DNA from: Candidatus Uhrbacteria bacterium
GTDB taxonomy: Bacteria > Patescibacteriota > Patescibacteriia > UBA9934
Assembly: GCA_943354605.1 (NCBI GenBank)
Contig: CALRCK010000002.1
Location: 6,280 to 70,279 of the forward strand
Reading direction: 5' to 3'
DNA length: 64,000 nucleotides
The translations under genes were made by a program, and so were the position numbers. This document shows positions 4,292 to 31,839 of this stretch, in pieces (position 1 is the stretch's first letter; each line of letters starts with the position of its first letter). A model generated the notes under the pieces. The model was not told where the DNA came from. It ran no database searches and saw only the letters and a program-made list of their open reading frames with translations.

Positions 4292-4585
4292 ATGTTCAAT
4301 AAGATTAAGCAGATCAAAGACATGCGCGACCAGAGCAAGATGATGAAGGCGATGCTCGACGAAGTGGTGATTGTGGGAATAGGCGCTCGCGGAAAAGTGA
4401 TGATCACGGTGAACGGAAGCCACGAAACACTTGGAGTAAAGGTGGATGAGACACTCAACCATTCAGAAATCGAAACCGGCGTGAAGGAAGCGCTCAACGA
4501 CGTGAACAGCAAGCTTCAGGTTGAGCTCATGAAAAAGATGAAAGAGATGGGCGGATTGGATGCGTTTAAGAATCTCGGACTGTAG
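4292..4585 (+). CDS. ybaB: YbaB/EbfC family nucleoid-associated protein.
   Basis: A 97-aa protein MFNKIKQIKDMRDQSKMMKAM...GGLDAFKNLGL. It shows the classic ybaB-recR adjacency. Confidence 0.8.
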   Translation: MFNKIKQIKDMRDQSKMMKAMLDEVVIVGIGARGKVMITVNGSHETLGVKVDETLNHSEIETGVKEALNDVNSKLQVELMKKMKEMGGLDAFKNLGL

Positions 4586-4626
4586 ACCTCCCCTAACCCC
4601 TCCTTCGTAAGGAGGGGGACCGCTCT

Positions 4627-5226
4627 ATGCGCAGGTTCCCCACTCCCATTCATAATGCCGCGGCCGCATTGGGTCGCCTTCCGGGAGTGGGGCCAAAAAC
4701 CGCACTTCGTTACGCGTTCGCGCTTCTCCATTTCAGCAAACTTGAACTCGCGAGCATTGGTCGTGCGATTGTCGACCTCGGTAATATCACACTGTGCCAA
4801 ACCTGCTTCACGTTTGCTGAAAAAGACTTGTGCGAAATTTGTGCAGATCCAAACCGCGACGCAACAAAGCTCTGTATCGTTGCTGAGGCGCGCGATATTT
4901 CCACCATCGAGGCCACAAGCGTGTACAAAGGGCGCTACTTCGTCCTCGGTGGCACACTCAACCCTATCGACGGCCGCACACCAGAAACGCTCAACGTGAA
5001 AGCCTTGCTCGATCTTGTGAAAAACTCGCCTTCAATCACCGAGTGTATTCTTGCGTTCTCTCCAGATGTTCACGGCGAAACCACTATCATGTATCTGCAA
5101 CGCCAGCTTTCGACATTTGGAAAATCGATGACGCGACTCGCTCGCGGTCTCCCCATGGGTGCCGATATTGAGTATGCGGACGAAGTCACGCTCGCAAGCG
5201 CAATGACCGGGAGATCAAAAGCGTAG
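4627..5226 (+). CDS. recR: Recombination protein RecR.
   Basis: It has a helix-hairpin-helix (LPGVGPKTALR), a C4 zinc finger (CQTCFTF...CEIC) and a Toprim segment. Confidence 0.95.
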   Translation: MRRFPTPIHNAAAALGRLPGVGPKTALRYAFALLHFSKLELASIGRAIVDLGNITLCQTCFTFAEKDLCEICADPNRDATKLCIVAEARDISTIEATSVYKGRYFVLGGTLNPIDGRTPETLNVKALLDLVKNSPSITECILAFSPDVHGETTIMYLQRQLSTFGKSMTRLARGLPMGADIEYADEVTLASAMTGRSKA

Positions 5227-13475: not shown

Positions 13476-13591
13476 AGAGTAAATAATTCAGCTACTCCGA
13501 TTGTACCGTATAAAAACGAACTGCGGGCCGGGAGACTTTCGTCTTCCGGCCCGCCGTCGTGAGTCACCGTGATGTCACCGGTCACCCAACC

Positions 13592-14851
13592 TCAGGTCTG
13601 CTCGCACCAGGCCACGAAGGTCTGGATACGTTCGATCGCCTTGCTGTCCTCGACCACCCGACCCTCGAACTTGATCTTCGCGCCGCGAACGGCGTTCAAC
13701 ATCCGCTCGATGGTGGGCCAGGTGTGGGGCACCGGCCGTTCCGCGTGGAGCCGTGCAACCGTCGCCGGGCTGAGGGCCTGGATCCGATCAGCAAGGCTCC
13801 TATTGGAGTCGCTGATGAAGATCGGACCGGTCCCCTTCGACTTCTTCTCGCCGTTGATCGTCCGTTCGAGCTCGGCCAGCGCCGCCTTCGAGGGGCGGGG
13901 ACTGGAGGGCACGGTGGACGAGCGGTTGGCGCGGAGGTGGTCGAAGATGTTGAACGGCTTCTTCGGCGCGTTCGCTTCGGCGGCCTTGCGAGCCTCCTCC
14001 GCGATGCGGGCGGCTTCGGCCTTGGCCTTCGCCGCCTCAGCCGCACGGTAGCGGACGACCGCGGCCTCAAGGCCGCGACTGACGGAGCTGAGCCAAGCCA
14101 GGTCTGCGCATCGGCCGTTCTCCAGGAACCAGCCGCGGGTGAGGGCACCGTTCCAGGCGTAGGCGAACGCGCCGTCGTCCATGCTCTGAACGAACGTCGC
14201 GAACTCCGTGTACGCGGTAGCGAGGTCCCATTCCGCATCGAGGCGAGCACGCTCCGCAGCGGCCTGGCGCTCGGCCTCGGCGGCCTCCTTCTGCCGATAG
14301 TCGCCCATCGCGGAGTCGAACACGGCTTGGGTCTTGCCGACCCAGTCCATGTCGCCATGCGAGATGTTCTCTTCGAACCAGCTCCGGGGGTACTTGCCGC
14401 CCCAGGTCTGGACGAAGAAGGCATCGGGCGCCTGGCGGACGACGGAGAGGAACGAATCGCGAGCGTTCTGCAGCTCCCGCCACTTCTGCTCCGCGGCTTC
14501 GGCGGCCTTGCGGGCTTCGGCGGCCTTACGGGCCTCCTCGGCGCGGGCGGCTTCGGCCTTGGCCTCGGCTTCCGCGGCGGCCTTGCGCTCGGCCGCGAGT
14601 CGGGCGAGGCGGGCCTCCTCGAGCTTCGCCTGGTGCGCGGCCTCGTCGAGGGCCTTCTGCGCGAGATCAGTCGCCATGCTGCGGTTCCGCCGCTTCACCC
14701 CGGCGGGGTTCATGCGGAGGATGGGGATGACGACGTCGTCGCGGCCGTAGTCGGGGCCCCAGGCACGACCCATGTTGCGGTCGGCACGGAAGGCAAAGGC
14801 GTCTTCGACACGGGAGGCACGGGAGGCGAAGTGTGCGGCGTTGCTGGACAT
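13592..14851 (-). CDS. Hypothetical Ala/Glu-rich coiled-coil protein with internal Trp-rich repeats, in high-GC island 2.
   Basis: The 13490-14900 segment is about 65% GC. It has AEAARKAAE repeats and two related modules (FFVQTWGGKYPRSWFEENISHGDMDWVG and FAYAWNGALTRGWFLENGRCADLAWL). The antisense 431-aa ORF is an artifact. Confidence 0.5.
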   Translation of the reverse strand: MSSNAAHFASRASRVEDAFAFRADRNMGRAWGPDYGRDDVVIPILRMNPAGVKRRNRSMATDLAQKALDEAAHQAKLEEARLARLAAERKAAAEAEAKAEAARAEEARKAAEARKAAEAAEQKWRELQNARDSFLSVVRQAPDAFFVQTWGGKYPRSWFEENISHGDMDWVGKTQAVFDSAMGDYRQKEAAEAERQAAAERARLDAEWDLATAYTEFATFVQSMDDGAFAYAWNGALTRGWFLENGRCADLAWLSSVSRGLEAAVVRYRAAEAAKAKAEAARIAEEARKAAEANAPKKPFNIFDHLRANRSSTVPSSPRPSKAALAELERTINGEKKSKGTGPIFISDSNRSLADRIQALSPATVARLHAERPVPHTWPTIERMLNAVRGAKIKFEGRVVEDSKAIERIQTFVAWCEQT

Positions 14852-15112
14852 TGAAGGTTCTCCGGGTGGGATCAGTGGGGTAACGGGACAGGAAGGATGT
14901 GGGGGAGAATTCCCTCCACGAAAGCCCGCTGAATAGCCTATTCAACAGATTTTCGCAGAAAGAATGCACATCTCATAACCCTATACTATAGCAGAAAAAG
15001 GCGTTTTTGTCAATAAAAATGGCTAATATGAGCGAAAAAAGAAGCCTTTCTAGGGTATTCCACTTTGATGATTCTCTTGTGTTGCGATACACTTCGCTTC
15101 GATCGAACAGAT

Positions 15113-15240: not shown

Positions 15241-15314
15241 TTCCGGGATCGTCTAACGGCAGGACAGCGGCCTTTGAAGCCGTGAACCGTGGTTCGAATC
15301 CACGTCCCGGAACC
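15241..15314 (+). tRNA. tRNA-Gln (anticodon TTG). CCA is encoded.
   Basis: The acceptor stem is tccggga/tcccgga. The T-arm is cgtgg-TTCGAAT-ccacg. The anticodon loop is cTTTGAAg. Confidence 0.8.
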
Positions 15315-15417
15315 ATCACGACCTGTTCCTACAGACCGGAACAGGGGGTGACCAAGAAAACCCGCCTCCAGTAATGGAAGCGGGTTTTCGATTGAGATAT
15401 GCTAATATGATCTGCAT

Positions 15418-15708
15418 ATGAGCAAACAAATGCGAAATCGTATCTTGATCAGCGTAATTGTTGGATTCATTCTGACGTTTGCATCGTTCGGCATACGAGA
15501 AAAGAATTCTCCCCTTGGGTATCCGAAAGTTAGTGCGGGTTATCCAAGAGCTTACTTGAGGGACGCTGGCGGTGTCAGTGTCGAAGGGTCACTTGGTCCA
15601 GAGGATTATTTTTCTCTGGGAGATTTTTTTATTGACGTGCTCGCATTCACCCTTGCAGCAAATGCTGTAGTTGAGCTGGGACAACAAGTAAAACGAGAAA
15701 AGAGTTGA
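15418..15708 (+). CDS. Small two-TM membrane protein directly upstream of the MazF-like gene.
   Basis: A 96-aa protein with hydrophobic helices at both ends. It lies in an AT-rich (about 40% GC) islet 3' of tRNA-Gln. There is a 7-nt gap to the next gene. Confidence 0.4.
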   Translation: MSKQMRNRILISVIVGFILTFASFGIREKNSPLGYPKVSAGYPRAYLRDAGGVSVEGSLGPEDYFSLGDFFIDVLAFTLAANAVVELGQQVKREKS

Positions 15709-15715
15709 GGATCTT

Positions 15716-16144
15716 ATGACTGCTCGTGGCATACTTAACTCAGTACAGCGATTCATCGCTTGGACGAACAGAAAAATCACTATCCATTTCGAAGATCGCT
15801 CAGAGTTCTATTTTTATGAGCGAGAAGTTTGGTGGGCGAGCTTGGGTGAAAATGTTGGATCGGAAACGAACGGTAAGAATTTTCATTTTGAACGTCCCAT
15901 CGTGATTGTGAAAAAATTCAGCAAAGATATGCTTTTCGTGATACCCACAACGACGAAAACTAAAGTTGGAACATGGTATCAGCCAATTGAATACGGTGAC
16001 ATAAAAACTCAGGCAATTTTAGCTCAAGCAAGGACCATTAGCGCAAAACGACTCATTCGAAAAATTGGCAATCTTTCACCAGAACAATTTCAACCACTCA
16101 TTGAAGGATTCGTTGCGCTTATAAAAACGAATTCCTCGACGTGA
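15716..16144 (+). CDS. PemK/MazF-family endoribonuclease toxin-like protein with a roughly 35-aa N-terminal extension.
   Basis: EVWWASLGENVGSETNGK...RPIVIV aligns to MazF/Kid GDIWxVDLDPTxGSEQxGxRPxVV. FVIPTTTKTK and the C-terminal ARTIS...L..I also match the fold. Confidence 0.55.
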   Translation: MTARGILNSVQRFIAWTNRKITIHFEDRSEFYFYEREVWWASLGENVGSETNGKNFHFERPIVIVKKFSKDMLFVIPTTTKTKVGTWYQPIEYGDIKTQAILAQARTISAKRLIRKIGNLSPEQFQPLIEGFVALIKTNSST

Positions 16145-16156
16145 GTCGAGGAATTC
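16129..16156 (+). terminator. Perfect 12-bp hairpin overlapping the MazF-like stop codon.
   Basis: The sequence is gaattcctcgac-gtga-gtcgaggaattc. Confidence 0.4.
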
Positions 16157-16308
16157 TCGGAGCTTCTTACGAAGCCAATGTAATTATAGAATACCACACC
16201 GCGTCATTTCGTCAATCAGTTTCTATTGAATTCTATCCGACCGGGACAGGGTCGGCGGACATATAGGAGGAAGCTCCAAAGTCACCGATAGGTTACAATA
16301 CACACACT

Positions 16309-17349: not shown

Positions 17350-17433
17350 ATAAACGCCGAACGTCCCCCTTCCCTCCGTGCTTCCGCATGAAGTTCCAGG
17401 GGACGTCGCGTGCCGTACGTTGTGTGCGCCTCA

Positions 17434-18053
17434 TCACGCCGCGTAAACGAGCCCGCGAATCGTCGCCATGAAGCGCGCGCACTTGTCGTCGAAGTCGTCG
17501 CCGCCGGGGATGTCGTGGAGCGTGTCGCCCGGCACGAAGCCGAGATCGATGTACGCCTGCCGTGCCTTCACGCCGAGCTCCACAGCTTCCGGGTAGGTCT
17601 CGAAGCGATACGCGTTCGTCTCGTAGAACCGTTCAGGGGGCGGCCCAGGAACGATGACGTGATCGACACCCTCCACGATCTGCTCCCGGCTATAGCCGAT
17701 GAGCCCGACGAGCTGGTTGATTCCGTTGGGCAGATACGCCGCGCCGCTCGGGATGGAACGGTTGAGAACCACAACGCAGCAACCGGTCTGGCGCGCACGC
17801 TCGAACGCGAGGGCGATGGCGAACACCGTGTACTCGGCGATGATCTTCTGGAACCGCACCCACATGTGGGGCGGCCAGCGCGACTTCTCCTCGCGTTCGA
17901 TCCCGAACCCGAGGTGCACCGCCATCGCCGCTTCATTGACGACAACGGCGTTTCGGGAGAACCAGTGATCTGCGGCCAGTCGCCGCAGCATCTCGTCCTT
18001 GCCTCCCCCGGGGGTTCCATCAACCACGATCAATTGAATTCCTTCCTTCATGA
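17434..18053 (-). CDS. P-loop NTPase, kinase-like, in high-GC island 3.
   Basis: It has a Walker A motif (IVVDGTPGGGKD) near the N-terminus. The 17360-18060 segment is about 62% GC. The start is trimmed to MKEGIQ because the long track ORF overlaps the next gene. Confidence 0.45.
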
Positions 18054-18128
18054 CCACTCCTGCCGTTATAGGCCGAAGGAATGTATCAAAAAACCACGAA
18101 TCTGCAAAACGTTCCGCGTTGTAAAATA

Positions 18129-19121
18129 TTACTTTACCTTCCCGTTCGAGGTGTACACCATGATGTAGGTTCCGTTGTCGGCCTTGATGACTGCCGGATC
18201 TCCGCCACGAATTCCGGTAAATACCGCCGAGGACCACGCTTCTCCGTCCGCAGAGGTGGCGTACCACACACCAGATCCAGTGTCCGTACCAAAGAAATAG
18301 ATGGAACCATTGTCGACGAGATAGTTTCCGGTCCAATTGTTCGAGGCGTTGGAAGAATTGACCCCCGTGTACGTGAAGGTTATGCCGTCTGTTGAAGTCC
18401 CATGATGCGTTCCAAAATTCGGTGCATACGGCGTGGACATCAGCCAGGTTTCTCCCACAGGCACCACCGCAGAATCGTATAACCGCGCACCAGTTTTCGT
18501 CATTGCTGTTCCGGTAAAGGTGTAATGCACGCCGTCGGAAGATGTCGCACTTGCGATGTATGTGTCTTGGGATCCTCTTTCACTCGTCGTGAAGTACATG
18601 CGCAACGTGTCGTCCGGAAGCACAACCAATGTGGGATCAAACGCCCTCTGGAGCGTGGACGGCATGTCGGCGATAGCAACCGTTTCAGGATCGGTCCACG
18701 TCACGCCATTGTCGTGAGAAATCGATGTTGCAACTTTGTCGAATGACGCGTCGACGTCTGGAAACCACTGAAACGATGCATACAGCGTTCCGTCGCTCGT
18801 CTTTGCAAGCGTTGGCACACCGGCGGATTCAACAAATCGCTCCGACGACGACGCAAACCCCGTAATAGACGAACTCGTCGTTATAATCAGATCGTTGTTC
18901 CACGGCCCGTTCTGAGATGTTTTCCGCGAAATGACCGCATTTATGTTCGCGGGCGTTCCGCTTGGCACAGCGTCCTGATTTTGCGCGACAGACGGCGAAG
19001 AAGAACCGGAATCCTCGTCGCTTGTAGAATTCATCTTCCATAACACATATCCATTCACGCCAAGCAGCCCCGCAAGCCCGAGCGTCACAACAGTGATCAG
19101 TGCAATTTTTGATGTGGTCAT
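18129..19121 (-). CDS. BNR/Asp-box repeat (sialidase-fold) secreted protein with an N-terminal anchor.
   Basis: It has an Asp-box (SISHDNGVTW), several S/T-x-D-G motifs and an N-terminal TM/signal sequence. Confidence 0.55.
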   Translation of the reverse strand: MTTSKIALITVVTLGLAGLLGVNGYVLWKMNSTSDEDSGSSSPSVAQNQDAVPSGTPANINAVISRKTSQNGPWNNDLIITTSSSITGFASSSERFVESAGVPTLAKTSDGTLYASFQWFPDVDASFDKVATSISHDNGVTWTDPETVAIADMPSTLQRAFDPTLVVLPDDTLRMYFTTSERGSQDTYIASATSSDGVHYTFTGTAMTKTGARLYDSAVVPVGETWLMSTPYAPNFGTHHGTSTDGITFTYTGVNSSNASNNWTGNYLVDNGSIYFFGTDTGSGVWYATSADGEAWSSAVFTGIRGGDPAVIKADNGTYIMVYTSNGKVK

Positions 19122-21779: not shown

Positions 21780-21833
21780 ACTGCGTTCATTGTACTCGAA
21801 ACAAAAAACCCCCGATAGGATCGAGGGATTTTT

Positions 21834-21909
21834 TGGAGCCATTTCCGGGAATCGAACCCGGGACCTCTGCTTTACGAAAGCATTGCTCTACCAGCTGAGC
21901 TAAAATGGC
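21834..21909 (-). tRNA. tRNA-Thr (anticodon CGT). CCA is encoded.
   Basis: Reverse-complement reading gives GCCATTTTAGCTCAGCTGGTAGAGCAATGCTTTCGTAAAGCAGAGGTCCCGGGTTCGATTCCCGGAAATGGCTCCA. Confidence 0.8.
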
Positions 21910-30631: not shown

Positions 30632-30651
30632 ATGTCGTGTGGACACGACAT
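30632..30651. promoter_or_regulatory. A 20-bp palindrome ATGTCGTGTG/GACACGACAT. Operator-like, site 2.
   Basis: Read directly. 9 of 10 positions are symmetric. It lies 56 bp from site 1, between the murG 3' end and the island-4 gene start. Confidence 0.35.
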
Positions 30652-30723
30652 ACAAATTTTGCAAAACGCACACCACGCCGACCAATGTCCGCCGTCATTC
30701 ACGCCCGTCCCAAGCCAGTCTCA

Positions 30724-31839
30724 TCACCCCTTCAAAGAATCAGGCCGGTCCCTCTTCACTTCCCCCTCCCCCAAAATCCGTAACGCCTCGTGCACAATGC
30801 GCTCATCACCGTTCGTCGGGAAAACAGTTCGAACCTTCGCCGAAAGCGCCTCACGACGTTCTGGGCTCTCGACCAAACGCAAAATGGATTGCAACAACGT
30901 CTGTGGCGTGACGTGTTTCAGTACTTCTGCGGCGCCACGATCTTCGAGCGCCTTCGCATTTTCCTCCTGCTGCCCCTCGAGCGGCAAAATAATCGCTGGT
31001 TTTCCAAGTGCAACCACCTCCGCCAACGTCCCCATTCCGGCGCGACACACCACCACGTCGGCGAGCGCCAAAATATCGGCCATGCCTTCGCCAATAAATT
31101 CTCGCGTCACGTACCCGTCGCCGATCGTTTCGAGTGCACTCAACATTTTTCCTCGACCAGTGATATGAATCACGTTTGCATGGCGGACGAGTTCTGGCCC
31201 AATCACCGAGAATCGCTCGTTCATCCGTGCAGATCCTGTACCACCACCAATCACCAATACCGTCGGCTTCGTTGCGGATAGTCCGAACAGCTCACGCGCC
31301 ATTTGTGCATCGCCTAATCGTAAAAACGGACGAATCATCGCGCCAACAACACATGTTTTTTGTGCACCAAAACTCGCAACGTTCTCCTCCCACGTCACAC
31401 TGACACGTTTCGCAAAAGGCGCCATCAATCGATTCGCAAGTCCAACAACAATATCAAACTGATGTACCCACGATGGAATGCGCATCACCGCAGCAGCAAA
31501 CGCAACAGGAACACTGACGTATGCCCCGGCAGTCATCACCATTGTGGGCTCAAGACTTGCGAGCATTCGCCCCGCGCGAATCATGCTGACGACGAGCTGA
31601 ATTGGCGCAATGATCCACGTCCACGGCCGAGTGCGATCAAACTTTGGCGCAGCAAGTGCAATGAAGGGAATCTTTGCAGACTCCACCACCAATCGCTCGG
31701 GGCCATCCGGTGTGCCAATCCACGTAAACTTCACCTGCGGATCACGCTTTCGCCATTCTGCAGCAACCGCAAGTAACGGTGTTACTGGACCCAGCGTTCC
31801 CCCGCCGGTAAACACAATGTGATGTTCTGGAGGATTCAT
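30724..31839 (-). CDS. murG: Undecaprenyl-PP-MurNAc-pentapeptide-UDP-GlcNAc transferase.
   Basis: A GT28 two-domain layout with an N-terminal G-rich loop (VFTGGGTLGPVTP) and a C-terminal motif (GAGMGTLAEVVALGKPAIILP). Confidence 0.9.
   Translation of the reverse strand: MNPPEHHIVFTGGGTLGPVTPLLAVAAEWRKRDPQVKFTWIGTPDGPERLVVESAKIPFIALAAPKFDRTRPWTWIIAPIQLVVSMIRAGRMLASLEPTMVMTAGAYVSVPVAFAAAVMRIPSWVHQFDIVVGLANRLMAPFAKRVSVTWEENVASFGAQKTCVVGAMIRPFLRLGDAQMARELFGLSATKPTVLVIGGGTGSARMNERFSVIGPELVRHANVIHITGRGKMLSALETIGDGYVTREFIGEGMADILALADVVVCRAGMGTLAEVVALGKPAIILPLEGQQEENAKALEDRGAAEVLKHVTPQTLLQSILRLVESPERREALSAKVRTVFPTNGDERIVHEALRILGEGEVKRDRPDSLKG

Follow-up and report, generated by a model that had tools for sequence, protein, structure and literature searches.

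A MazF-type toxin gene with a convergent small RNA as its most likely antitoxin in a Patescibacteria genome

In the window, by which we mean the whole 64,000-nucleotide stretch of DNA that was analysed, a tRNA-Gln gene is followed on the plus strand by open reading frames (ORFs) for a 96-aa and a 142-aa protein, and the 3′ end of the latter meets a predicted small RNA (sRNA) gene on the minus strand (Table 1). The window as a whole averages 52% GC; the content is 49% in the spacer after the tRNA, 44.7% in the 96-aa (membrane protein) ORF, 40.6% in the 142-aa (toxin) ORF, and 41.8% in the RNA gene. An earlier sequence-only reading of this locus had placed a drop to ~40% GC right after tRNA-Gln; this stands for the toxin ORF, but not for the spacer and the membrane ORF. 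The same reading had ended the feature at position 16160 and did not include the RNA, half of whose gene (~16121–16215) lies beyond that point.

Table 1. Positions in the window of the toxin gene, the predicted small RNA gene and their neighbours.
Feature	Position	Strand	Basis or remark
tRNA-Gln(UUG)	15242–15315	+	context only, outside the toxin and RNA module
Gene for 96-aa protein with two transmembrane (TM) segments	15418–15708	+	neighbour, not part of the module; syntenic with tRNA-Gln
Toxin gene, 142-aa MazF/PemK-fold endoribonuclease (activity predicted)	15716–16144	+	
Toxin N-terminal helix (residues 3–25)	15722–15790	+	
Toxin MazF core (residues 36–128)	15821–16099	+	
Toxin stop codon TGA	16142–16144	+	
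Predicted ~60-nt small RNA ACAUUGGCUUCGUAAGAAGCUCCGAGAAUUCCUCGACUCACGUCGAGGAAUUCGUUUUUAU	16121–16181	−	covariance models, fold
U-run GUUUUUAU	16121–16128	−	follows hairpin B
Hairpin B, GC-rich, 12 bp	16129–16156	−	terminator scan, compensatory changes
Linker CCGA	16157–16160	−	structural alignment; within conserved C-Y-GAGA motif between hairpins A and B
Hairpin A GGCUUC-GUAA-GAAGCU	16161–16176	−	6-bp stem, GNRA loop, conserved G.U closing pair
Predicted sRNA transcription start	~16181	−	
sRNA promoter	16188–16215	−	near-consensus sigma-70; independent promoter scanner
−10 TATTCT	16193–16188	−	
−35 TTGACG	16215–16210	−	followed by 16-nt spacer with TG extension

The 142-aa protein matches the Pfam family PemK_toxin (PF02452) over its MazF core with 37.6 bits (cutoff 23.1), and structure prediction confidently models a MazF/Kid SH3-like barrel. 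All 41 family members compared have R60-P61 and T79, which correspond in alignment to the R and P-x-T of Mtb MazF and are the equivalents of the catalytic Arg (R25/R29) and Thr/Ser (T48/T52). By Pfam match, modelled fold, and catalytic residues, the protein is a MazF-type enzyme with predicted endoribonuclease activity, which bears out its earlier description as MazF/PemK-like. An N-terminal extension of ~35 residues had also been described and is real: alignments to solved MazFs begin no earlier than query residue ~35, which leaves ~30 extra residues. Canonical MazF structures are without the additional N-terminal helix found here, which is family-specific and carries invariant W16 and K20 on an F..W...K face. 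The toxin falls outside the ToxN, CptN, and TenpN sequence families in a profile scan, and no match for it was found in the PADLOC and NCBIfam defence-system libraries.

MazF toxins are expected beside a protein antitoxin, and we looked for one at the window locus and its relatives. No MazE-like ORF is present at the locus, as had been noted before. All-vs-all BLAST of the ORFs within 700 bp of the toxin at 36 loci yielded no conserved protein partner, and the only families shared were artefacts of translating the RNA and tRNA-Gln; Pfam searches of the ORFs nearest to the toxin returned housekeeping genes and no antitoxin domains. These searches rule out a conserved protein partner in general, and by sequence comparison the toxin is without a conserved protein antitoxin. 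One-off protein neighbours were seen at single loci, i.e. an ArsR HTH protein at L008 and an RHH-like ORF on a Nitratiruptor plasmid.

The 96-aa protein, whose two TM segments (residues 8–27 and 67–88) and position 7 nt upstream of the toxin ORF agree with the sequence-only reading, is under purifying selection. It had been put forward as the partner, and in principle it could be a new kind of membrane-protein antitoxin whose translation is coupled to that of the toxin, as the two genes lie on the same strand at this short distance and no separate promoter was detected between them. The neighbourhood comparison proposed as the test of that idea makes it very improbable: only three homologues were found among 5.8 billion proteins, and none stands beside the toxin at the 35 other loci. 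In related contigs, the homologue follows tRNA-Gln and is itself followed by an unrelated 137-aa gene instead of the toxin, which ties it to the tRNA. Furthermore, the toxin at L003 starts 16 nt past the tRNA with no ORF upstream, and at L025 the entire module is inserted as a unit of 574 bp between atpG and atpD, which leaves space for the toxin and the RNA but not for a second protein.

The minus-strand element at the toxin 3′ end has the features of a small RNA gene, with a predicted transcript, start, and end. From 5′ to 3′, the RNA would comprise a short 5′ tail, hairpin A, the linker, hairpin B, and the U-run, and its predicted fold has a free energy of −27.3 kcal/mol (z −5.7). Covariance models R1 and R2 match at 16118–16184 on the minus strand with E-values of 1e-19 to 2e-20, the only strong match in the 64 kb. 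In the terminator scan, hairpin B with the U-run (16121–16156) came out as an intrinsic terminator on the minus strand alone, and no plus-strand terminator was found after the toxin gene. With its last ~21–24 nt, the predicted RNA covers the final toxin codons and the stop codon in antisense, and the loop of hairpin B holds the complement of that stop codon. Searching both strands with Rfam 15 (cmscan, E ≤ 10) returned no family for the RNA; the matches were confined to the tRNA and an artefact from a terminator hairpin. Rfam does hold a pemK RNA motif from Firmicutes, where it accompanies pemK genes as a structured RNA; the window RNA has no Rfam match, and the organisms differ.

For the comparison of loci, we used structure-guided N-padded and covariance-model alignments of the RNA, and set a MAFFT alignment aside, in which hairpin B was misaligned. 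Altogether 98.6% of alignment cells are paired and 16 of 19 pairs show double changes, a count that leans towards structure because the alignment was built from the hairpins themselves; none of 500 shuffles scored as high, and slid controls reached at most 65%. Double changes occur in 5/7 pairs of hairpin A, whose outer pair is G.U in 25 and G-C in 5 of 30 sequences, and compensatory changes in 11/12 pairs of hairpin B. The strand tests favour the minus strand, which gives the more stable fold in 25/30 loci (p = 9e-5), 42 G.U pairs versus 11 in the plus reading, and GNRA/UUCG loops in 36/60 cases versus 6/57. Of 43 loci, 38 have the promoter in the same place relative to the RNA (at least 9/12 matches to consensus, mean 10.2), compared with 4/85 control regions (p = 4e-19). 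The functional strand, structure, promoter, and terminator of the predicted RNA are supported by these data.

Two other roles for the element were considered and set aside. A plus-strand function, by which the element would serve the toxin gene as 3′ UTR or terminator, is disfavoured by the strand tests and the missing plus-strand terminator. A mini-ORF in the RNA (AUG-GGC-UUC-GGC-CUC-UGA) was dismissed on inspection, as it is present only in CUGAG variants, and neither the CCGAG nor the clade-A variants retain it.

Toxin and RNA are linked in both directions. The RNA was found at the toxin 3′ end in all 36 evaluable loci, and model R2 recovered ~55 loci with a linked toxin, at E-values from 5e-20 to 1e-2 and with hardly any off-target matches. 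When metagenomes were scanned by the RNA motif alone, 28 of the 30 matches had a convergent MazF-like gene 17–69 nt away or overlapping, and the other two are chance matches inside large ORFs, so that all 28 genuine RNA-first matches have the toxin. The lone IMG/VR viral contig with a toxin homologue also carries the RNA. Taken together, the toxin gene and the convergent RNA form a compact cassette of ~0.5 kb (15716–16215), which is quite probably a two-part toxin–antitoxin system with the RNA as the most likely antitoxin.

A counterpart of this arrangement is found on pVir, a plasmid carried by Campylobacter jejuni 81-176. The pVir0047 protein is homologous to the window toxin, including the F..W...K helix, at 26% identity (tblastn E 8e-6), and a Nitratiruptor homologue gives E 9e-15; both alignments begin at residue 1–11. 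Like the window toxin, pVir0047 has no adjoining protein antitoxin. Its gene faces CJpv3, a 77-nt minus-strand sRNA (31119–31043) that was detected by Northern blot, ends 5 nt past the pVir0047 stop codon, and has a TSS value of 16164 compared to 28 for the pVir0047 mRNA (Dugar 2013, Tables S5/S12). A convergent sRNA with its own promoter that ends at or in the toxin stop codon is predicted in the window and backed by an experimental TSS and Northern blot on pVir, where the RNA does not overlap the toxin coding sequence (CDS). On the H. suis plasmid, in the CJIE4 prophage, and in Nitratiruptor, we judged by eye that a convergent sRNA with a promoter likewise ends at or in the toxin stop codon. 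CJpv3 folds into the layout of hairpin A, short linker, and GC hairpin B and shares the AUUGGCU start with the window RNA; it differs in its length and in an extra 5′ hairpin that the ~60-nt window RNA does not have. With filters off, model R2 gave no match at E ≤ 10 to the Campylobacter, Helicobacter, and Nitratiruptor RNAs, and the proposed RNA homology between CPR bacteria and Campylobacterota draws on the architecture and the short AUUGGCU motif. The two systems also differ in location, the pVir system being plasmid-borne in Campylobacterota and the window system chromosomal in Patescibacteria.

The pVir0047/CJpv3 pair is probably the published CjpT/CjrA RNA-antitoxin system, in which we take CjpT to be pVir0047 and CjrA to be CJpv3. 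Shen et al. in 2016 reportedly described CjpT/CjrA of pVir as 'type I', with an RNA antitoxin and a proteic toxin, and the system is said to stabilise the plasmid. In those passages of citing papers that deal with CjrA, it is a validated RNA antitoxin and is called type I antisense.

The sequence-only reading had also allowed for an orphan toxin. In such a case, the protein would act as a toxin or RNase by itself, or possibly as a domesticated RNA-processing enzyme, and the 3′ element would be a mere regulatory or terminator structure, or the sRNA its substrate or product. The module does lie inside housekeeping operons in several genomes (atp, near rpoB, dnaX), its proximity to tRNA-Gln recurs, and toxicity and neutralisation in the CPR members are predictions from sequence. 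However, a terminator requires no promoter firing into it, yet the promoter is kept in nearly all loci, and the structure belongs to the strand opposite the toxin gene. The catalytic residues are invariant, and the sporadic spread, the low GC, and the occurrence on plasmids, in prophages, and on a viral contig are in keeping with a cassette of selfish or accessory nature. According to citing papers, the pVir system stabilises its plasmid. We therefore consider an orphan enzyme unlikely, and the strict co-inheritance of the RNA with the toxin speaks against the earlier suggestion.

In the proposed mechanism, a MazF-fold endoribonuclease toxin of the subfamily with the N-terminal F..W...K helix would have as its cognate partner, and most likely antitoxin, an RNA and not a protein, i.e. 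the ~60-nt opposite-strand sRNA, which would be transcribed from its near-consensus promoter in large excess over the toxin mRNA and terminate inside the last toxin codons. How the RNA would neutralise the toxin can be seen in two ways. With no terminator on the plus strand, the toxin transcript is bound to continue across the RNA gene, which would allow pairing of the sRNA with the 3′ end of the toxin mRNA, as in 3′-overlapping type I systems; if the mRNA does read through, RNA and mRNA are fully complementary. On a purely antisense account, this pairing would set off RNase III cleavage with decay, or transcriptional interference, with no contact between RNA and protein. The genes are indeed cis-encoded, convergent, and overlapping, read-through is obligatory in the atp-operon insertion, and the citing papers, in the parts concerned, class Campylobacter CjrA in this way. 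Other observations fit this account less well. Pairing in cis survives any sequence, yet the RNA 5′ domain is 91–100% identical between loci whose toxins are 63–75% identical, with four-fold sites saturated (~23–50% identical), while the terminator hairpin B drifts (33–69% in the same comparisons). Complementarity of the sRNA to the ribosome-binding and initiation region of the toxin, of the par/Fst or SymR kind, showed no signal, with a mean z of 0.04. At the majority of loci, the RNA overlap is confined to the toxin 3′ UTR, and the RNA is clear of the CDS on pVir and in most clade-B loci. The conserved G.U pair and the invariant, family-specific N-terminal helix suggest a specific recognition partner. 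On balance, we regard pure antisense action as possible but rather doubtful.

The sequence-conserved 5′ domain and the invariant residues of the N-terminal helix suggest that the RNA binds the toxin. In the reading that we favour, which is nearly, though not quite, an even call, the 5′ tail, the G.U-closed hairpin A, and the CYGAGA linker would be additionally or mainly bound by the toxin in a type III-like, protein-level inhibition, which would use the RNA groove of the toxin and/or its N-terminal helix. That most loci hold one RNA unit and no array speaks against protein binding of the type III kind; two tandem units occur only in L014, L029, and L030. The complete model is more tentative: a convergent ~60-nt RNA of a single unit would neutralise a MazF-family toxin by acting on the protein, and the RNA groove and the W/K helix of the toxin would together recognise the 5′ domain of the RNA. 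If true, it would be a hybrid of type I gene architecture, type II toxin, and type III inhibition, and would apply to at least 550 clusters, concentrated in CPR.

Each known class shares part of these features. Among type I systems, txpA/RatA and bsrG/SR4 of B. subtilis and par RNAI/RNAII of E. faecalis have 3′-overlapping convergent RNAs, and SymE/SymR and RalR/RalA illustrate that type I toxins can be nucleases. As in txpA/RatA, bsrG/SR4, and par, the window has a convergent sRNA with a strong promoter over the toxin 3′ end or shared terminator region, and the predicted overlap with the end of the CDS is that of a type I antisense RNA. In contrast, type I toxins are by definition hydrophobic peptides of small size (<60 aa), whereas the window toxin is a 142-aa soluble MazF-fold enzyme, and the primary sequence of the window RNA is kept far beyond antisense need, with no complementarity to the initiation region. 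The type II MazEF, PemIK, and Kis-Kid systems have the Pfam family and the catalytic Arg/Thr in common with the window toxin; they encode a protein antitoxin in an operon with the toxin, whereas the window toxin has neither and its partner would be an RNA. The type III systems ToxIN, CptIN, and TenpIN (Blower et al. 2012, PMC3401426) likewise have a small structured RNA partner, and the two tandem units at three loci and the sequence constraint on the RNA are further points in common. Their RNA is a repeat array that lies upstream of the toxin gene on its strand, with a terminator between the two, whereas the window RNA lies downstream of the toxin gene on the other strand, has a promoter of its own, and is, as at most loci, a single unit; no pseudoknot is evident.

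Members of the subfamily are annotated as 'type II PemK/MazF family toxin' and seem to be orphans, while their RNA partner is uncatalogued and not in Rfam; recognising it would remove a class of apparent 'orphan toxins'. It would also run counter to the rule of thumb that MazF comes with MazE, and RNA antitoxins with small peptides or ToxN-like toxins. The covariance model and the defined 0.5-kb minimal cassette make the question of type I versus type III testable. The subfamily has at least 550 representatives (50% identity clusters) at E ≤ 1e-30, and ~2000 at E ≤ 1e-10. Its distribution is sporadic, in candidate-phyla bacteria, Campylobacter plasmids, prophages, and one viral contig, and connects the CPR cassettes to a plasmid-stabilising Campylobacter system. 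In CPR/Patescibacteria with their tiny genomes, the cassette is kept even in core operons (atpG–atpD), which bears on addiction and defence in uncultured episymbionts.

The locus had been viewed before as a tRNA-targeted integration islet, a view that gained no support: the 25-mer of the tRNA-Gln 3′ end has no second copy in the 64 kb at up to three mismatches, no other direct repeats of note occur in the window, and the neighbouring ORFs scanned hold no integrase domain. The low GC fits horizontal acquisition of the ~0.5-kb cassette, and the window copy is chromosomal and was probably acquired horizontally by this Patescibacteria (Uhrbacteria-like) genome. In other genomes, tRNA-Gln recurs near the module.

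Sequence, fold and catalytic residues all place the 142-aa protein in the MazF/PemK family, as the sequence-only reading had proposed. Residues 36–128 match Pfam PemK_toxin at 37.6 bits (curated cutoff 23.1), with no match in NCBIfam or PADLOC, and comparison with MazF, Kid, CcdB, the type III toxin CptN, AbiQ and ToxN gave values of 14.3, 12.5, 10.8, 10.5, 7.3 and 7.2, respectively. Alignments with solved MazFs begin only at query residue ~35, so that ~30 residues at the N-terminus are truly extra to the core, and the extension noticed earlier is thus borne out. Among 41 members, R60-P61 and T79, the equivalents of the MazF catalytic residues, are invariant, strongly supporting a catalytically intact MazF-type RNase; W16 and K20 in the extension are also invariant and F13 nearly so, with a spacing (i, i+3, i+7) that places the three on one helix face. 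The extension therefore belongs, as a conserved functional element, to a MazF subfamily of its own and is not an annotation artefact. The toxin gene is, judging by 57 synonymous-only and 19 nonsynonymous codon differences from its closest relative, under purifying selection. A word-indexed search found 75 relatives, mostly of 128–156 aa, and an exhaustive search with a profile yielded 550 representatives of 50%-identity clusters at E≤1e-30, or 2039 at E≤1e-10; in 150/150 best profile matches the alignment starts at the N-terminal helix and continues onward. The 38 genome loci retrieved, a few with MAG labels of doubtful value, are nearly all from Patescibacteria/CPR (Uhrbacteria, Saccharibacteria, Paceibacterota, Kaiserbacteria, Azambacteria and Peribacteria), and the nearest kin of the window toxin are from Uhrbacteria (83–87%). 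At one locus (L031), a 405-aa reverse-transcriptase-like ORF (1406–2623), whose N-terminal motifs point to a group II intron or retron type, ends 9 nt 5′ of the toxin gene.

Coordinates of the module and of tRNA-Gln genes near it, in the window and in other toxin loci (L numbers)
Feature	Location	Strand	Remarks
tRNA-Gln(UUG)	window 15242–15315	+	near module
96-aa ORF	window 15418–15708	+	two hydrophobic segments
142-aa ORF (toxin)	window 15716–16144	+	7 nt past 96-aa ORF
sRNA promoter	window 16215–16188	-	TTGACG, 16 nt, TATTCT, TG extension; independent scanner
Predicted sRNA, 61 nt	window ~16181 to 16121	-	fold -27.3 kcal/mol, z = -5.7
sRNA terminator	window 16156–16129 plus GUUUUUAU	-	independent scanner
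tRNA-Gln near module	L001 528–601
tRNA-Gln near module	L003 3913–3985
tRNA-Gln near module	L005 2680–2753
tRNA-Gln near module	L007 267–340
tRNA-Gln near module	L023 4546–4619
tRNA-Gln near module	L028 4462–4533

The upstream 96-aa protein, previously taken for the partner of the toxin, is a real protein to judge by its hydrophobic segments and codon differences from a homologue (36 synonymous-only, 26 nonsynonymous); a search of 5.8 billion proteins returned just three homologues. It is found beside none of 35 other toxin loci, and on related groundwater contigs its homologue directly follows tRNA-Gln and is itself followed by an unrelated 137-aa protein, synteny with the window being limited to the tRNA and the membrane gene. 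As it is not conserved next to MazF homologues, the membrane protein was rejected as partner. At L003 the toxin ATG lies 16 nt past the tRNA with no upstream ORF. The flanks of the toxin loci share no common ORF family, in agreement with the earlier statement that no MazE accompanies the toxin; the apparent ‘conserved ORFs’ are only spurious translations of tRNA-Gln and of an RNA element.

This element is conserved in the 3′ flanks of all loci, at or across every toxin stop codon. On the minus strand it opens with a sigma-70-type promoter, the RNA start lying ~7 nt on; there follow a short tail rich in A/U, hairpin A, the linker C-Y-GAGA and hairpin B, which is GC-rich and precedes a U-run. 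In the window, the hairpin B loop contains the toxin stop codon and the codons for ...IKTN encode the U-run; the independent scanner found no plus-strand terminator 3′ of the toxin gene. Across 30 loci, the minus strand is the more stable in 25 (Wilcoxon p = 9e-5) and has 42 G.U pairs versus 11, with GNRA or UUCG loops in 36/60 hairpins versus 6/57. Hairpin A is closed by a G.U pair in 25/30 and by a G-C pair in 5/30, the former corresponding to an A.C mismatch on the other strand. In a structure-guided alignment, which was built from the hairpins and so leans towards structure, 98.6% of cells are paired and 16/19 pairs show two-sided changes; none of 500 shuffles reached these values, and slid partners gave at most 65% pairing. 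A promoter with at least 9/12 matches to TTGACA-N16-19-TATAAT (mean 10.2) lies at a fixed distance in 38/43 distinct loci, compared to 4/85 control regions (p = 4e-19). In ~55 loci the covariance model of the RNA (R2) matches the toxin 3′ end in convergent orientation, with E from 5e-20 to 1e-2, and it gives a single strong match in the 64-kb window, with almost nothing elsewhere; Rfam 15 holds no matching family.

A reciprocal scan of a metagenome collection with the 20-nt RNA motif alone returned 30 loci, 28 of them with a convergent MazF-like gene that ends 17–69 nt from the motif or overlaps it, the other two falling by chance inside large ORFs of no relation, roughly as many as a pattern of this length should produce. 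The sole IMG/VR viral contig with a toxin homologue also carries the RNA. This two-way linkage makes toxin and RNA an obligate pair, and our survey strongly supports their strict co-inheritance without a protein partner. In Kaiserbacteria/Patescibacteria MAGs, the 574 bp that separate atpG from atpD in the ATP synthase operon hold the cassette (L025 3959–4532, L026 alike), which shows toxin and RNA to be sufficient as a unit; atpD expression then needs read-through over the convergent sRNA gene. We infer that the RNA is probably the cognate partner and antitoxin. Low GC, core-operon insertion and occurrence on plasmids, prophages and a viral contig strongly support a mobile, accessory distribution. 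Two tandem RNA units stand 3′ of the toxin at L014 (~4400–4520), L029 (~4600–4700) and L030 (~905–1030), recalling short type III antitoxin arrays.

A tblastn search of annotated plasmids and phages turned up distant relatives whose alignment starts at the N-terminal helix: on pVir of C. jejuni 81-176, on plasmids of Nitratiruptor and Helicobacter suis and, between the terminase and portal genes, in CJIE4 prophages. Each carries the annotation of a type II PemK/MazF toxin yet has no antitoxin alongside, and inspection of each revealed a convergent hairpin A, short linker and GC hairpin B abutting or overlapping the stop codon. On pVir, the 77-nt sRNA CJpv3 (minus strand, 31119–31043) was seen on a Northern blot and lies in the pVir0047–pVir0048 interval in ‘><>’ orientation, pVir0047 being a PemK-like gene of 405 nt (30634–31038); the TSS value is 16164 for CJpv3 and 28 for the pVir0047 mRNA (Dugar et al. 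2013, PMC3656092, Tables S5 and S12). Of the three hairpins in the CJpv3 fold, the second and third correspond to hairpins A and B, and its hairpin A starts with AUUGGCUU, as does that of the window sRNA. The CPR model R2 did not detect the Campylobacterota RNAs, and the link between the two groups rests on protein homology and common architecture. The pVir0047/CJpv3 pair, which we take to be CjpT/CjrA, probably the same system, is the closest known relative of the module; CjpT is reportedly proteic and the system plasmid-stabilising. On the Nitratiruptor plasmid (L074), a 62-aa RHH/CopG-like ORF (1991–2179) sits just 3′ of the toxin and 5′ of the plasmid rep gene, overlapping the region where the sRNA promoter is predicted; it probably encodes a copy-control repressor, but could be a protein antitoxin in this lineage. 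In Campylobacter prophage CJIE4-3 (L077 701–1135), the toxin gene and convergent hairpin element lie between the terminase large subunit and portal genes, a typical moron position that suggests a phage-borne addiction or exclusion role.

The convergent, strongly promoted, structured ~60-nt RNA would act as antitoxin to a MazF-type RNase, and in direct, type III-like inhibition it would be recognised by the toxin protein. We regard a contribution of such recognition as a serious possibility, if not quite a probable one. The 5′ domain of the RNA (tail, hairpin A, linker) is 91–100% identical where the toxins are 63–75% identical; four-fold degenerate sites in the same locus pairs are near saturation (about 23–50%), and hairpin B identity goes down to 33–69% with pairing kept. 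The constraint on the 5′ domain is not explicable by cis-antisense pairing and thus favours direct inhibition, as do the lack of complementarity to the toxin translation-initiation region (mean z 0.04, p = 0.77), the position of the RNA clear of the coding sequence in most loci, the co-occurrence of the invariant W/K helix with the RNA from CPR to Campylobacterota, and the tandem units in three loci. A purely antisense, type I-like action, which we rate somewhat less likely, also fits: the toxin gene lacks a terminator on its own strand, and in L025 transcription has to continue into atpD, so that the toxin mRNA would contain a perfect ~55-nt complement of the sRNA. The Campylobacter counterpart has been assigned to type I: two papers that cite Shen et al. 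(2016) present CjrA as an antisense RNA antitoxin with experimental validation, from a ‘type I’ system carried by 81-176 pVir.

In how it would work, the module resembles TA modules with an RNA antitoxin. The absence of a protein antitoxin excludes it from type II, and it resembles type I systems in gene layout only, not in toxin type; it is a further member of the little-known pVir0047/CJpv3-type kind. Apparently new are the size of the subfamily and its concentration in CPR bacteria, a defined RNA family absent from Rfam, the minimal 0.5-kb cassette, and the evidence that the RNA is constrained at the level of sequence.

Integration at tRNA-Gln, also suggested from sequence, found no support. 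The drop to ~40% GC after the tRNA holds at the toxin ORF (40.6%; 41.8% just beyond), but it is stepwise and not abrupt, passing through 49% in the spacer and 44.7% in the 96-aa ORF (window mean 52%). A terminator-like hairpin (AAAACCCGC...GCGGGUUUUC) lies directly 3′ of the tRNA at 15357–15392, and a weak minus-strand match to Rfam ‘ncr1175’ is this hairpin alone. Another, with a T-run, on the plus strand within the 96-aa ORF (15597–15630) could attenuate transcription into the toxin gene. Upstream, a ~1.3-kb patch of odd composition (13559–14854, 64–73% GC) holds a 419-aa Ala/Glu/Lys-rich ORF (13592–14851, minus strand) with no significant Pfam match, the long plus-strand ORF there being spurious. 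The ‘high-GC kinase’ is a 300-aa AAA_28-like P-loop ORF (17434–18336, minus strand) in a 63–65% GC patch (17400–18000); its Pfam match is only marginal (26.8 bits, cutoff 27).

tRNA-Gln lies within 0–3.2 kb of the module in 7/36 genome loci; of the 13 tRNAs recorded close to the module, 7 are tRNA-Gln. It is upstream in the Uhrbacteria-type clade, and immediately downstream, divergent from the sRNA promoter, in two clade-B loci (L023 and L028). Common descent or synteny in a few lineages could account for this recurrence, as could a preference for insertion there or some functional tie; some MazFs cleave tRNAs. Weak R2 matches also fall on tRNA 3′ halves with the following terminator hairpin (L039 3910–3981, L040 1061–1132, L041 3255–3326; E 0.002) and on a tRNA 3′ half in the window (21795–21845, minus strand, E ~1). 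The likeness is possibly trivial, both having a small UUCG-type hairpin, a GC hairpin and a U-run; alternatively, it hints at tRNA 3′-half mimicry.
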